Shown here piece after piece: positions 347 to 17,457 of a DNA stretch of 32,000 bases. The translations under genes were made by a program, and so were the position numbers. The notes under the pieces are model-generated. The model was given only the letters and a program-made list of their open reading frames with translations. It made no database searches and was not told the origin of the DNA. Every line of letters begins with the position of its first letter. The stretch's first letter is position 1. Location: NCBI GenBank assembly GCA_012033205.1, contig JAAUSO010000041.1:1115-33114 (forward strand). The letters run 5' to 3'. This DNA comes from Richelia sp. SL_2_1. Its GTDB lineage: Bacteria; Cyanobacteriota; Cyanobacteriia; Cyanobacteriales; Nostocaceae.

Positions 347-354
347 TTTTGCAA

Positions 355-1539
355 ATGCCAACTTATCTTTCTCCCGGTGTTTACGTAGAAGAAATTGCTT
401 CTGGTTCTGCTCCAATTGTAGGAGTTGGAACTAGTATTGCGGCTTTTATTGGTACGATTAAAGTTGCAAATGAAGTTTCAGAAGGAGAAATACTTACCCC
501 TGCTACAGATTCTGAGAATACTACTACATTCTCAAAAATATCTACCTCCAAAGGTGAAATTAAACTAATCACAAACTTTACTGAATTTAAAAAATTATTT
601 GGTGATTTTTCTAGTGATGCTCCTGAAGGACAAAATACTTTAGCTCATGGGGTTTATGGTTTTTTTAGAAATGGAGGAACTCGTTGTTATGTAACTTGGA
701 TATCGGGAGAAAGCGAAGTTAATGACGTTTTAGATAAATTTGAAGCTATTGATGAAATTACCATCGTCGCGGCTCCAGGAAGTCTAGATTTGAGGGATGA
801 TATTAAAGACCACTGCGAAAAAATGGGCGATCGCATTGCGGTTTTAGATAGTGAGGAAGATATCGATTTGAGCAACACTGAAGATATTAAAAAGCTCAAA
901 CCCTTCAATTCTGCCTATGCAGCTTTGTATTTCCCGTGGATTAAAGTTTTTGACCCTGCTACTAATCGTAATATTGATATTCCCCCAAGCGGTCATATTG
1001 CCGGAGTTTACGCACGGGTTGATGGACAAAGAGGAGTACACAAAGCTCCTGCCAATGAAACTATTTTGGGAGCATTGGATTTAAAATACAATCTCAGTCA
1101 ATCCAAACAAGATGGACTTAATCCAGATGGGATTAACTGCATTCGTCTTCTGAACGGTAATATCCGCGTCTGGGGTGCGCGGACTTTGGGTGGTGACGCG
1201 AATACGGAGTTTAAGTATGTAAATATCCGTCGTCATTTTAATTACTTAAGAGATTCGATTAATAAAGGAACTCAGTGGGTGGTTTTTGAACCCAATACCC
1301 CAGAACTCTGGGCAAAAATCCGCCGAAATATCAGCGCTTTTTTGATGATGGAATGGCGACAAGGAGCATTATTTGGCACAACACCCCAAGAAGCTTTTTA
1401 TGTGAAATGTGATGCAGAAACCAATCCTCCAGAAGTCCGAGATTTGGGTCAAGTTGTCACAGAAATCGGTGTAGCAGTAGTTAAACCAGCAGAATTTGTG
1501 ATTTTCCGTATTAGTCAATGGGATGGTTCGGGACAATAG
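355..1539 (+). CDS. Contractile tail sheath protein, paralogue 1 (Afp2/Pvc2-like)
   Basis: N-terminal 'MPTYLSPGVYVEEI' is the hallmark start of phage/eCIS sheath proteins. The C-terminus 'INCIR...VWGARTL...YVNIRR...EAFYVKCDAETNPPE' is the conserved sheath C-terminal domain. The ORF track starts at TTG 349; ATG 355 follows the RBS. Confidence 0.9.
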   Translation: MPTYLSPGVYVEEIASGSAPIVGVGTSIAAFIGTIKVANEVSEGEILTPATDSENTTTFSKISTSKGEIKLITNFTEFKKLFGDFSSDAPEGQNTLAHGVYGFFRNGGTRCYVTWISGESEVNDVLDKFEAIDEITIVAAPGSLDLRDDIKDHCEKMGDRIAVLDSEEDIDLSNTEDIKKLKPFNSAYAALYFPWIKVFDPATNRNIDIPPSGHIAGVYARVDGQRGVHKAPANETILGALDLKYNLSQSKQDGLNPDGINCIRLLNGNIRVWGARTLGGDANTEFKYVNIRRHFNYLRDSINKGTQWVVFEPNTPELWAKIRRNISAFLMMEWRQGALFGTTPQEAFYVKCDAETNPPEVRDLGQVVTEIGVAVVKPAEFVIFRISQWDGSGQ

Positions 1540-1553
1540 ATATTTGGGTATTC

Positions 1554-1651
1554 TCTAACCTTTAACCTCTAACCTCTAACCTTTAACCTTTAACCTCTAA
1601 CCTTTGACCTTTAACCTCTAACCTCTAACCTCTAACCTCTAACCTCTAACC
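1554..1651. repeat. Tandem heptanucleotide array, 14 copies of TYTAACC (TCTAACC/TTTAACC, one TTTGACC)
   Basis: Read directly from the sequence. It fills most of the 119-nt spacer between the two sheath genes. Same repeat class as cyanobacterial STRR heptamers, but a different unit. Confidence 0.95.
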
Positions 1652-1658
1652 TTTTGTT

Positions 1659-14799: not shown

Positions 14800-14817
14800 A
14801 CTAAAAAGAGAAATAAC

Positions 14818-16755
14818 ATGGCTAAAACTACCGATTTCACGACCTTTGCTACCGAACATCCCAACTATTTTCCAGGTCAATATTTACTAGAAGAAGACTT
14901 TGAAATTCAACATAAATATTTGAGCGATCGCCAACGTTATTATAATCATAGTCTTCATGTTTCAGGAATTATTGAAGGGTTGGAAGTTGAAGTTACTCAA
15001 GATAAAAAATCTCTGCTGATCAAATCTGGCTCAGCTATAGATAGTAAAGGGAATTTGGTTGTTTCAAAAGTAGATATTACCTTTTCCGAATTTAACAACA
15101 TTACTAGCGGTGAACTTTATATTCAATATTTTCAAAAACAAGGAGTTCAACAGCAAGAAAACGTAGATGAAAGCTATACACGCTGGATTGAAAATCCTAT
15201 TTTTGGATTTGCAGCGACATCTCCTGAAAATGGAATTAAATTAGCAAAACTGACAATTTCCGGAGATACTATTACTCTTGATACTAACATTCGGGAATAT
15301 TCGGGTTTATCTTTACCCAACTCTAATGATAAAGCTTTGACTCTACGTTCTGGGGGGAATACAAATCCAAATTTAGCAGTTTTAACAGGTAGTTTAAAGA
15401 TTGACGGGGATTTAACAGTTACTGGAATAATTTCCGGAAAAATAGATACTGAAAACATTACCTCTGGAATATTAAGTGTTGAGCGTATTCCTAATTTATC
15501 TGCGGATAAAATTACTTCTGGAGTATTAGCTGTCGAGCGTATTCCTAACTTATCTGCGAATAAAATCACTTCTGGAGTATTAGCTGTCGAGCATATTCCT
15601 AACTTATCTGCGAATAAAATTACTTCTGGTTCTATTAATGGAAATATTAATATAAAAGGTAGTTTAACCATTCAAGAAGGTAATGTTAATCTGGCAGGTA
15701 ATCAACAAATTATTTTTACAGATACCGACATAACAAACAAGCTCAAACTACAACTTTGGGATGGATATGGATTTGGTATTAACGGTAGCACCTTATTTTA
15801 TACAGCGAATGGTAAACATTCTTGGCGAGATGCTGAAAGTAAAGAAAGAATGTTATTAACTACAGGTGAGAATGGTGGGTTAACAGTCAATGGAACGGGG
15901 AGTTCTTCTTTTGGTGGTAGTTTAACAGTTACCGGAAGTTTGACAATTAATACAGGTGGTGCATATTCATGGAATAAATTGGTTGTAACAACAACATCTG
16001 AATGGGGAGATGGAGACAATAAATATGTGACAATTGGAGCAGGTGGAGCAGATGGAATTATGTTATCGAATCCCCACGTTACTTGGAGAGATAGCAGAGC
16101 TTCAATTCGTTATGGACGTGCTGGAGGAATACAATCAGGTTCTTACTGGGATTGTGGTGTTCGTCAAGATGGCTCTTTTTCTTTTTCATTAGAAGGACCT
16201 AGTGATCATAAATTAACAATCGCCAAAAATGGAAATATATCAATCGAAGGAGAAATAAAATCGCGAGGAATTCATGTAGAGTATGATCGCACTACTCACA
16301 TTGAGAAAGATGGCGCTTTGTATCGTTATAATGGGCAAGTATATATAAGTATTGACGATAATTTATATATAAGAGATTATAGTAGGAATAAATATATTCA
16401 CTTAGATGTTTTAAATCAAAAGATTAACTATTCTAGTGATATAAAGCTGAAAAAGAATATTCAACCTCTTGAAAATGGATTGCAAAAGATACTGAGTTTG
16501 CGTGGAGTAACTTTTGAGTGGAAGGATGATGAATTTTCTCAGCAACCTCATAAGCAATTGGGACTTATTGCTCAAGAGGTAGAAAGTATCTTTCCGGAAA
16601 TTGTACAAATTGGTCATGACGGAATCAGGTCTATCCATTACATCGGCTTAATTACTCCTATGATCGAAGCGATTAAAGAGCAACAAAAACAGATTTCCAG
16701 TTTATTAATGCGACTTGAAGAACAACAAAACAATAACGTCAAATTAAAAAATTAA
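14818..16755 (+). CDS. Tail fibre protein with a C-terminal S74-type intramolecular chaperone (auto-cleaving) domain
   Basis: The C-terminus 'SSDIKLKKNIQPLENGLQKILSLRGVTFEWKDDE...LGLIAQEVESIFPEIV...IHYIGLITPMIEAIKEQQKQI' matches the endosialidase-chaperone domain. 'ITSGVLAVERIPNLSANK' repeats and a Gly-rich beta region are typical of fibres. Confidence 0.8.
   Translation: MAKTTDFTTFATEHPNYFPGQYLLEEDFEIQHKYLSDRQRYYNHSLHVSGIIEGLEVEVTQDKKSLLIKSGSAIDSKGNLVVSKVDITFSEFNNITSGELYIQYFQKQGVQQQENVDESYTRWIENPIFGFAATSPENGIKLAKLTISGDTITLDTNIREYSGLSLPNSNDKALTLRSGGNTNPNLAVLTGSLKIDGDLTVTGIISGKIDTENITSGILSVERIPNLSADKITSGVLAVERIPNLSANKITSGVLAVEHIPNLSANKITSGSINGNINIKGSLTIQEGNVNLAGNQQIIFTDTDITNKLKLQLWDGYGFGINGSTLFYTANGKHSWRDAESKERMLLTTGENGGLTVNGTGSSSFGGSLTVTGSLTINTGGAYSWNKLVVTTTSEWGDGDNKYVTIGAGGADGIMLSNPHVTWRDSRASIRYGRAGGIQSGSYWDCGVRQDGSFSFSLEGPSDHKLTIAKNGNISIEGEIKSRGIHVEYDRTTHIEKDGALYRYNGQVYISIDDNLYIRDYSRNKYIHLDVLNQKINYSSDIKLKKNIQPLENGLQKILSLRGVTFEWKDDEFSQQPHKQLGLIAQEVESIFPEIVQIGHDGIRSIHYIGLITPMIEAIKEQQKQISSLLMRLEEQQNNNVKLKN
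15457..15630 (+). repeat. 3.2 tandem copies of a 54-nt (18-aa) unit inside the fibre gene
   Basis: Units at 15457-15510, 15511-15564 and 15565-15618, plus a partial fourth, encode ITSG(I/V)L(S/A)VE(R/H)IPNLSA(D/N)K. Confidence 0.9.
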
Positions 16756-16837
16756 GCAGAAATTTATCCTCATTTATATTACAAACTAAAAATAAATATG
16801 AGTGATAAAACCTTGATTACTTTCTCATACGAAACCA

Positions 16838-17266
16838 ATGTCTGACTTCATTATTATTACCGGAGATAAAGCCATGTTTAACCCCAACTTCGGACAAGCA
16901 ATTGTTACTGTACGCCCAGGGGATTTAATTGGCACCGGAAAAGATAAAATTAATGGCAAACTAGTTTGTGTCGATGGTGACGAGAAAAAAGTTATCGTAC
17001 CTGGGTGTAATTACATGACCCCACAATATAGTATTCCAGGGGTAGGAATGCTCACAATCGAATCCCTTGCAGGCAACCAAAAAGCTCAAAAGACCGAATC
17101 TAGCGGTAAACCTGTACTGCTAAAAGGTGCTTCTTTCCAAGCCAAATTTCAAGTGATGGTTCCCGCTCAACAACCTTCAATACCCAATCCTATTCCTGAC
17201 GCTACCCCCCAATACTCCGGTACTGGTACATTTAATTCTATGAATACAAAGGTCAAAGGAACATGA
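16838..17266 (+). CDS. Unknown 142-aa protein at the end of the eCIS operon; weak resemblance to DUF4280/PAAR-like spike-tip proteins
   Basis: Same strand, 82 nt after the fibre gene, and overlapped (ATGA) by the next ORF. The beta-rich pattern 'IIITGDKAMFNPNFGQAIVTVRPGDL...GKPVLLKGASFQAKFQV' only loosely recalls DUF4280. The function call is very tentative. Confidence 0.4.
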   Translation: MSDFIIITGDKAMFNPNFGQAIVTVRPGDLIGTGKDKINGKLVCVDGDEKKVIVPGCNYMTPQYSIPGVGMLTIESLAGNQKAQKTESSGKPVLLKGASFQAKFQVMVPAQQPSIPNPIPDATPQYSGTGTFNSMNTKVKGT

Positions 17267-17457
17267 AAGAACAACTAGAAAAACGTCTAGCCGAACTCAA
17301 AGCCGAATTTGCATCGGGACAAAAGGTAATAGTCGAATTGGAAACAAAACAAGCTAATCTGCGGGATACATTATTACGAATTAGTGGAGCAATTCAAATT
17401 CTAGAAGAAGAAATAGGTAAAGCTAATACAGAAGAAGAAAATACCGGCGTTGCATAA
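17263..17457 (+). CDS. 64-aa predicted coiled-coil protein, translationally coupled to the preceding ORF
   Basis: Heptad-like 'LEKRLAELKAEFASGQKVIVELETKQANLRDTLLRISGAIQILEEEI' and an ATGA overlap at 17263-17266. Confidence 0.45.
   Translation: MKEQLEKRLAELKAEFASGQKVIVELETKQANLRDTLLRISGAIQILEEEIGKANTEEENTGVA

Follow-up and report, generated by a model that had tools for sequence, protein, structure and literature searches.

The genome of Richelia sp. SL_2_1, a filamentous cyanobacterium, contains a 17-kb run of phage-tail-like genes, and this locus raises the question of whether they are the tail module of a prophage or a contractile injection system (CIS) and, if the latter, to which lineage the system belongs and how it acts. 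The window analysed here is the whole 32-kb stretch of contig JAAUSO010000041.1, and coordinates are positions in it unless another contig is named. The region 349-17457 (+ strand) is the structural operon of a complete CIS of the extracellular CIS (eCIS) superfamily; its parts list is ordinary and complete, and the individual system is uncharacterised so far.

The gene content was established by Pfam, NCBIfam and PHROG profile searches and by sequence searches of the PDB. The operon comprises 17 co-directional genes, and the coordinates of the open reading frames (ORFs) confirm the overlapping stop and start codons described in an earlier sequence-only reading of this stretch, with neighbours sharing 1-26 nucleotides (nt) at 6093/6096, 7820/7823, 8527/8527, 13189/13214 and 17263/17266. 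All the signatures named in that reading (sheaths, tubes, DUF6760 peptide, LysM protein, hub, spike, gp25, J proteins, gpI and fibre) were recovered by profile hidden Markov model searches where it had placed them. Two Phage_sheath_1 and two Phage_T4_gp19 genes scored above the curated cut-offs, and the baseplate core is complete, with gp25, J, gpI, LysM tube initiator, VgrG-type spike and spike tip. Markers specific to eCIS are also present, namely a Pvc16_N cap, CIS_tube, CIS_spike_tip, an eCIS_core effector and a Cis15-type ATPase.

The cap, effector and ATPase genes lie 0.1-5 kb upstream of the window on three contigs of metagenome-assembled genomes (MAGs) from NCBI (JAAURC010000077, JAAUQH010000020 and JAAUTV010000011, hereafter L042-L044), which are 99.93-99.95% identical to window positions 1-11537 over 11.5 kb. 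An exact copy of the sheath-1 protein of 394 amino acids (aa), read from the ATG at 355, is encoded on all three contigs, and identical entries for the J and gpI proteins are found at NCBI under 'Richelia sp.' MAGs. The sequence-only reading had listed cap, ATPase and effector as missing, which is correct for the window and incorrect for the locus, since they stand immediately upstream; it had suggested looking there for DUF4255 and an AAA+ ATPase, and both are present in L042-L044. The payload, which it had left open, now has a DUF4157-hydrolase candidate, and the PAAR gene that it had reported absent corresponds to an overlooked tip gene, the product of which matches 6p22_D, a 'PAAR-repeat central spike tip protein' (E 4e-19). 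The seemingly missing components thus reflect the edge of the window and one missed gene. Position 1 falls inside a small CarboxypepD_reg-like gene just downstream of the cap gene; the full copy (L042 9520-9930), 136-139 aa in the source contigs, stands between cap and sheath 1. A scan of species-representative genomes retrieved 41 related loci; the small gene occupies this position in 28 of them, is absent or undetected in several more distant ones, and encodes a protein with no significant match in the PDB sequence search.

All effector-position ORFs tested (about 12, from 10-11 relatives) carry eCIS_core and only their first ~90-240 residues resemble the source effector. The C-termini are variable: one relative has Tox-HDC, the source an alpha/beta-hydrolase, and others gave no family match. 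From these shared eCIS_core N-termini and differing C-termini, the payload looks modular. Two tandem eCIS_core effector genes (477-865 aa), with C-terminal regions that gave no Pfam match, are found in some relatives (L010 2886-8022 and L036 4931-7892).

The lineage was assigned by ranking E-values against PDB chains, so that the placement is to be read as 'clade II-like', with no subclade (IIa-IId). By this measure the system is nearest to the Streptomyces CISSc, on the clade-II (Streptomyces/haloarchaeal) branch. Sheath 1 best matches Streptomyces CIS sheaths (8bky, E 5e-114; 8bl4, E 1e-110), followed by the haloarchaeal 9ezm (1e-98), with Pvc2, tCIS All3325 (3e-48; tCIS being the thylakoid-anchored CIS of Anabaena sp. 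PCC 7120, 7b5h) and AlgoCIS all weaker, at about 1e-46 to 1e-49. The sheath, Cis11 and Cis12 core are all closest in sequence to those of the S. coelicolor CISSc (8bky, 9gtp), which also has two tube paralogues, and a CISSc-like wedge of two J-type subunits and a small gpI-type subunit is plausible for this locus. Unlike CISSc, however, the locus has two different J genes (1087 and 317 aa), a Cis11 with ~440 extra aa, a 534-aa Cis12 with two added beta-sandwich domains, two sheath genes (CISSc has one), a fibre, a PAAR-like tip and a gene in the tape-measure position. CISSc is a cytoplasmic system of clade IId that mediates cell death and is devoid of a fibre and of a typical tape measure, and S. 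coelicolor is devoid of a PAAR protein (PMC10066040). The clade-I systems Afp, PVC and AlgoCIS have in common with this locus the cap, sheath paralogues, tube, LysM initiator, spike with PAAR-like tip, gp25, Cis11 and Cis12, fibre, ATPase and effectors, but differ in gene order and sequence clade. They also differ in the spike, which is split here into a gpD-like gene, equivalent to the N-terminal part of a VgrG-related spike, and a gpV-type gene. This split is kept in L046 (Calothrix parasitica), L047 and L048, the three complete genomes used to compare cluster order and flanks.

The baseplate of the system is elaborated and has the character of a mosaic. By sequence, J-long, the enlarged Cis11, aligns with CISSc Cis11 (9gtp_1K) in three blocks (E 2.5e-61) and with tCIS All3317 only at 1e-11, the latter similarity being limited to the C-terminal part. 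Two stretches are inserted compared with CISSc Cis11, a beta-rich one of ~440 aa (residues ~164-604) and a smaller one near residues 884-955. Folds were compared by searching AlphaFold2 (AF2) models against solved structures with Foldseek. The best match of the J-long model (predicted local distance difference test score, pLDDT, 84.7) is the enlarged Cis11 of the Anabaena tCIS (7b5h_AH; E 2.9e-42, template-modelling (TM) scores 0.52/0.47, 1229 columns), followed by a PlPVC1 baseplate chain and AlgoCIS Cis11, all of which rank ahead of CISSc Cis11. The elaborated baseplate anticipated from the sequence agrees with this ranking. J-long probably has extra domains like those of tCIS and AlgoCIS, as judged from its model; AlgoCIS Cis11, the overall fold of which it shares, has a cage domain, and the extra domains of J-long may likewise form a cage. 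Coverage values of 44-56% had raised the suspicion that the large insertion is hypervariable, an idea that was rejected: it is present in 119 of 119 cyanobacterial homologues examined, which align across it at about 53% identity, and its length varies only near residues 550-610.

J-short, a 'mini-Cis11', aligns only to residues 1-73 and 444-612 of CISSc Cis11 and to residues 6-76 and 839-1071 of J-long. As aligned, it is the N-terminal helical segment of a J protein followed by the C-terminal domain, with nothing between. In wedges of the T4 and pyocin type, the N-terminal core bundle and the C-terminal dimer are made of these J segments. That J-short might be a decayed copy was considered and rejected, as it belongs to a large family: there are 949 matches, mostly of 300-400 aa (nearly all of the best 120 of the 949 being ~310-330 aa), and at E<=1e-30 the family forms 651 clusters at 50% identity. 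In all three complete genomes the gene stands between those of J-long and gpI and overlaps the start of the latter, and the length of its product is kept at about 311-330 aa. The AF2 model of the gpI-like Cis12 comprises an N-terminal helical Tail_P2_I domain and two tandem beta-sandwich domains, and the duplication that the sequence-only reading had noticed in this gp7/gpI-like tail is borne out at 32% identity (E 1e-14). The N-terminus matches CISSc Cis12 by sequence (9gtp_E) and by fold (9gtp_A, Foldseek probability 1.0), and the beta-sandwich domains gave weak fold matches to immunoglobulin (Ig)-like adhesin and pilin domains. Cis12 is shorter in some relatives (360-385 aa), where it covers only ~63% of the query.

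The wedge of CISSc consists of two Cis11 and one Cis12, and that of Afp, PVC and AlgoCIS of one Cis11 and one Cis12 (PMC12237407). Because the CISSc wedge holds two Cis11 subunits, J-short would take the second Cis11 position here. We tentatively propose, as a possibility that we hold with some doubt, a three-protein wedge with J-short at the second Cis11 site of the CISSc/pyocin-type wedge, a J-long with cage-type domains as known otherwise from the clade-I systems tCIS and AlgoCIS, and a Cis12 bearing two Ig-like domains, an arrangement unseen in solved CIS.

Another feature that sets the locus apart from CISSc is its fibre, the Cis13 equivalent. It consists of an N-terminal baseplate-attachment region, a shaft of 18-aa repeats (residues ~213-266, encoded by a 54-nt repeat present 3.2 times at 15457-15629), a beta-rich distal part and, at the C-terminus, an S74 intramolecular chaperone domain; S74-fold fibres have been catalogued in eCIS (PMC12923769). 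Residues 16-104 align with positions 8-100 of CIS13_fam (E 2e-7), and the C-terminus matches phage long-tail-fibre tips of the T4 type (6f45) in the PDB search. The first 258 aa share 69% identity with the fibre of Nostoc PCC 7524, and the remainder is unrelated to it; in a comparison with the fibre of Calothrix parasitica, the two ends are conserved and the difference lies in the region of the shaft repeats. Swapping of distal modules is typical of receptor-binding proteins.

An extracellular mode of action is favoured because the distal module of the fibre has been exchanged and no membrane anchor was found, and we consider it reasonably probable that the locus encodes a released, fibre-targeted extracellular CIS that delivers a hydrolase. 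The particle would assemble in the cytoplasm on a baseplate with a wedge of J-long, J-short and Cis12, which would represent a subfunctionalised form of the (Cis11)2-Cis12 wedge of CISSc and to which J-long would also supply the extra cage-type domains known from the Cis11 proteins of tCIS and AlgoCIS. The 501-aa low-complexity protein would set the length of the tube, the cap would terminate it, and the ATPase would aid assembly and the loading of the DUF4157-tagged hydrolase. Lysis of the producer would release the particle, the trimeric fibre, matured by S74 autocleavage, would bind the target, and contraction of the sheath would drive the tipped spike and the effector into it. Several points weigh against this proposal. 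The characterised system nearest to it, CISSc, is a cytoplasmic one with a role in cell death (PMC10066040), and tCIS, the other characterised cyanobacterial CIS, is not released either (PMC8894136). No lysis or release genes are linked to the cluster in the window, in the 9.6 kb upstream or in L046-L048. The TM score of the J-long fold match is only about 0.5; the cap, ATPase and effector were seen in near-identical contigs, outside the window itself; and the wedge stoichiometry, the cage, and the tape-measure and chaperone roles are all assignments that we infer.

The strongest competing explanation, which we judge unlikely yet well worth considering, is that the particles act inside the producer as those of CISSc do: they would stay in the cytoplasm of the filament and fire on stress, the hydrolase killing the producer in a regulated cell death, and the fibre would bind an internal partner or serve only after lysis. 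The nearness of the sheath, Cis11 and Cis12 cores to CISSc speaks for this, as does the biology of CISSc, a cytoplasmic device that brings about cell death in a bacterium with a multicellular body (PMC10066040, PMC12237407). Filamentous growth is found in the host and many relatives, and the lack of a linked lysis cassette would fit. On the other hand, the phage-type fibre with its exchangeable distal module, the tape-measure-position gene and the tip have no equivalent in CISSc (PMC10066040). No candidate for a CisA-like membrane adaptor is among the genes called on the 9.6 kb upstream, a Kyte-Doolittle (KD) hydropathy scan of the cluster proteins detected no transmembrane segment in the structural components, and the downstream neighbours differ between L046, L047 and L048. 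Moreover, the family also occurs in Xenococcus, Snowella and Crocosphaera, which are unicellular genera.

Considerably less probable is a particle anchored to a membrane or thylakoid in the manner of tCIS or of haloarchaeal CIS, through Cis11, the tandem domains of Cis12 or an unlinked membrane protein. The sequence-only reading had leaned towards a tCIS type with a possible membrane anchor, and a number of likenesses point that way: both systems have a cyanobacterial host, DUF4157 effectors beside the cluster, a Cis11 that is enlarged and multi-domain at the level of the fold (tCIS Cis11 being the best fold match of J-long) and a Cis13-like N-terminal attachment region of the fibre, and Cis12 has a peripheral extension. 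The related sheath 9ezm (E 1e-98) belongs to the CIS of Halogeometricum borinquense (clade IIa, type VI secretion system-like), which has two cis11 genes, is membrane-bound and correlates with Hbor_38620, a protein with six transmembrane segments (PMC11566945). Nevertheless, that system is archaeal, with toxin-immunity effector pairs, and no gene for a six-transmembrane protein is linked to the present locus. The traits of tCIS are a C-terminal transmembrane helix in Cis13, an extension of Cis12, a Cis19 crown and additional domains in Cis11, a cage among them, and anchoring needs the Cis13 helix and the specific Cis12 extension (PMC8894136). In the cluster proteins, the KD scan (19-residue segments, KD >= 1.6) found no convincing transmembrane segment in any structural protein and a marginal one at the N-terminus of sheath 1; the fibre ends in the S74 domain and is devoid of the Cis13 transmembrane helix. 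Scores against CIS12_fam (63 bits, cut-off 860, only the gpI core matching) and CIS13_fam (30.5 bits, cut-off 370) are far below the cut-offs, and no tCIS chain is among the 50 best Foldseek matches of the Cis12 C-terminal extension. All operon ORFs are accounted for, with no obvious extra trimeric baseplate protein that could be a Cis19 crown, although no Cis19 profile search was made, and no membrane protein gene is conserved in or beside the cluster (upstream region of L042, flanks of L046-L048). Finally, the sheath (3e-48) and Cis11 (1e-11) are distant in sequence from those of tCIS and nearer to CISSc, and this locus differs from tCIS in having a second, short Cis11 and a second sheath. 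The locus is not a member of the tCIS type, of whose traits it shares only the enlarged Cis11, and the suggested membrane anchor is not supported.

A defective myovirus prophage tail module or an R-type tailocin is effectively refuted, for although every part is homologous to a phage tail, no head (capsid, portal), packaging (terminase), integrase or lysis genes were found in the window or in 9.6 kb upstream on L042-type contigs (a check proposed in the sequence-only reading, which had already seen a CIS operon and no prophage), the eCIS-specific cap, CIS_tube, CIS_spike_tip, eCIS_core effector and ATPase are present, the best match to a phage sheath reaches only 35% identity over 64% of the protein, host-type repeats lie inside the cluster, and synteny is kept across many genomes with differing flanks.

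These repeats accord with the earlier view that the cluster is resident in a cyanobacterial chromosome. HIP1 (GCGATCGC) is present 19 times in the window, 8 of them within the cluster, against an expectation of 0.09 per window in shuffled sequences, and heptamer tandem repeats lie in four intergenic gaps: CTCTAAC x14 (1553-1652), AAATCTA x6.6 (2981-3026), AATCCAA x4.6 (12227-12258) and CTTTTTA x5 (17510-17544). They resemble the short tandemly repeated repetitive (STRR) sequences of heterocystous cyanobacteria. The repeat at 12227-12258 falls inside the mechanically called ORF starting at 12219 and speaks for a start of J-short at 12261; probable true starts are also 355 for sheath 1 and about 13195 for gpI. 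An exact look-up of sheath 1 from the mechanically called TTG at 349 gave no match and the ATG at 355 gave one. A promoter and terminator scan and an Rfam search gave nothing above chance.

The genes of the cluster and of its upstream part are listed in Table 1.

Table 1. Genes of the contractile injection system, in order along the DNA; the first three are given in coordinates of the near-identical contig L042 and the others in those of the window.
Product	Position	Strand	Evidence and remarks
WHD+AAA ATPase, Cis15-type	L042 4454-6541	-	profile search; 695 aa
Putative effector, eCIS_core (DUF4157) + Abhydrolase_1	L042 6639-8216	-	profile search; 525 aa
Pvc16_N cap	L042 8913-9506	+	profile search of near-identical contig
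CarboxypepD_reg-like protein, 3' part	1-284	+	frame open from window start; weak CarboxypepD_reg/prealbumin-like matches
Sheath protein 1 (Cis2), probably main sheath	355-1539	+	Phage_sheath_1 E 4e-18, Phage_sheath_1C; 394 aa
Sheath protein 2	1659-2795	+	Phage_sheath_1 E 8.5e-15; paralogue of sheath 1
Inner tube protein (Cis1a)	3046-3486	+	Phage_T4_gp19 E 2.3e-44
p126, C-terminal CPHC motif	3505-3885	+	no family match; 120-126 aa, annotated 120 aa in source contigs
DUF6760 peptide (p45)	3909-4046	+	PF20546 E 5.6e-13, 49 bits vs cut-off 27; 45 aa
Second tube-family protein (Cis1b/Cis5-like tube initiator layer)	4071-4559	+	Phage_T4_gp19 E 6.7e-35
S/N/Q-rich low-complexity protein	4591-6096	+	tape-measure position; no family match; ~501-508 aa
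LysM tube initiator (Cis7)	6093-6755	+	CIS_tube E 2e-21, LysM E 2e-6
gpD-like hub (Cis8 part 1)	6759-7823	+	NCBIfam VgrG_rel E 1e-55, model positions 5-348/547; weak Phage_GPD match
gpV-type oligonucleotide/oligosaccharide-binding (OB)-fold spike (Cis8 part 2)	7820-8527	+	Phage_base_V E 1.4e-30
gp25-like sheath initiator (Cis9)	8527-8913	+	GPW_gp25 E 2.5e-27
J-long, enlarged Cis11 wedge protein	8920-12183	+	Baseplate_J, TIGR02243; 1087 aa
J-short, 'mini-Cis11'	12261-13214	+	TIGR02243 E 5.5e-45; 317 aa
Cis12 / gpI-like wedge protein	13189-14799	+	Tail_P2_I E 3e-15; 534 aa
Tail fibre (Cis13 equivalent)	14818-16755	+	Peptidase_S74 E 1.5e-18; phage fibre PHROGs
PAAR-like spike tip (Cis10)	16838-17266	+	CIS_spike_tip PF19267 E 6e-56
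p64, helix-rich, coiled-coil-like, last operon gene	17263-17457	+	only sub-threshold coiled-coil family matches; 64 aa

Among the remaining structural genes, sheath 2 is 41% identical to sheath 1 (E 2e-78), is kept in synteny among relatives and may form a specialised sheath layer. p126 ranks among the most conserved products of the cluster, with 61-91% identity between phyla (loci of Myxococcota and Acidobacteriota included), and gave no Pfam, NCBIfam, PHROG or PDB match, with only noise in a lenient Pfam search. The DUF6760 peptide gave a sub-threshold match to Phage_P2_GpE (E 0.024) and nothing significant in the PDB sequence search. A programmed frameshift fusing p126 to the DUF6760 ORF was considered and rejected, as this ORF has its own ATG overlapping the upstream in-frame TGA. 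Both genes occupy the position of phage tail assembly chaperone genes, and their position suggests such a role. The S/N/Q-rich protein, for which Pfam, NCBIfam and PHROG gave no match and a lenient Pfam search only noise, is well conserved only in its last ~30 residues (about 0.8) and in residues 26-75 (about 0.5). Most relatives with both neighbours (tube 2 and the LysM gene) have a single ORF of 441-825 aa at this point and a few have two or more; its position would suit a length ruler. The assembly chaperone and the tape measure of the sequence-only reading accordingly agree with the positions of these genes and find no family match for 3505-3885 or 4591-6096. Homologues of p64 (57-63% identity) stand between fibre and cap in five relatives (L022-L026), and a small ORF also follows the tip gene in L046 and L047; p64 itself gave nothing significant in the PDB, no PHROG match and only noise in a lenient Pfam search.

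The 41 related loci come from Nostoc, Calothrix, Fischerella, Okeania, Pseudanabaena, Spirulina and others, and also from Myxococcota and Acidobacteriota, and share one gene order between sheath 1 and the J protein. In the closer cyanobacterial loci with sufficient upstream sequence, the order ATPase, eCIS_core gene(s), cap, small protein and sheath recurs. J-long, J-short, gpI, fibre, tip and the small ORF are kept together in three complete genomes, one sublineage having moved the fibre, effector and ATPase. In this rearranged sublineage (L022-L026 and L048, of Tolypothrix/Umezakia/Dolichospermum type), the fibre and a p64-like gene come before the cap; L048 has its effector and ATPase genes behind the tip gene, on the + strand, and a gpI of 629 aa.

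The surroundings of the cluster call for a few further observations. Beyond the ATPase, L042-type contigs carry an HTH_VMAP-M9/AAA_35 gene for a STAND-like NTPase (L042 3006-4415, + strand, 5-6.6 kb upstream of window position 1), a ParA-like gene and a Na/sulfate symporter. An HTH_VMAP-M9 + AAA_35 gene is also found in Calothrix parasitica (L046 17307-18725, - strand), about 4.4 kb beyond the end of the cluster, and none was detected within 10 kb of the sheath gene in 41 other loci; it may be a regulator or a coincidence. Downstream, positions 17458-18360 (about 900 bases) contain short ORFs only, including minus-strand hydrophobic fragments at 17542-17745 and 17799-17930 with no family match, perhaps remnants of genes at the border of the island. 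An Amidase_3 gene (N-acetylmuramoyl-L-alanine amidase, E 4e-38) with an N-terminal hydrophobic signal-like segment follows at 18360-18998, 0.9 kb downstream; a role as particle-release enzyme was rejected as unsupported, the gene not being beside the cluster in three relatives (L046-L048), and it is probably unrelated to release. Farther on, a short helix-turn-helix (HTH)-like ORF (20948-21253) overlaps the start of an 1126-aa protein with 14 WD40 repeats (region to 24552) and a P-loop-like motif, GMGGIGKT, in its N-terminal half; this ORF may be the frameshifted or mis-started N-terminus of the WD40 gene. A redox-related group at 24644-28042 comprises a DsbD-like membrane protein, a thioredoxin-like protein, DJ-1/PfpI and a LysR-substrate + GNAT fusion ORF, with a GC content of 0.41-0.45, higher than that of the CIS operon (0.30-0.40). 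At 29212-31616, a 524-aa AAA/AAA_35-like NTPase on the minus strand faces a sigma-70 factor of the extracytoplasmic function (ECF) type (31014-31616).

New modes of action and programmable devices for protein delivery are being sought among contractile injection systems, and to our knowledge only one cyanobacterial CIS, tCIS, has been characterised. The present locus shows that Nostocales and many other cyanobacteria carry a second CIS lineage, distinct in sequence from tCIS and related to the cell-death system of Streptomyces, from which it differs by an exchangeable fibre of phage type, a PAAR-like tip and effectors tagged with DUF4157. The same cluster is carried by cultured strains (among them Nostoc punctiforme, Nostoc sp. 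PCC 7524, Calothrix sp. PCC 7507 and Rivularia sp. PCC 7116), and localisation, release and baseplate structure are therefore directly testable. Should the reading of a three-protein wedge prove true, this lineage would be the fibre-bearing sister of the fibre-less Streptomyces cell-death machine, and filamentous cyanobacteria would allow a direct test of the switch between an extracellular weapon and an intracellular death device.

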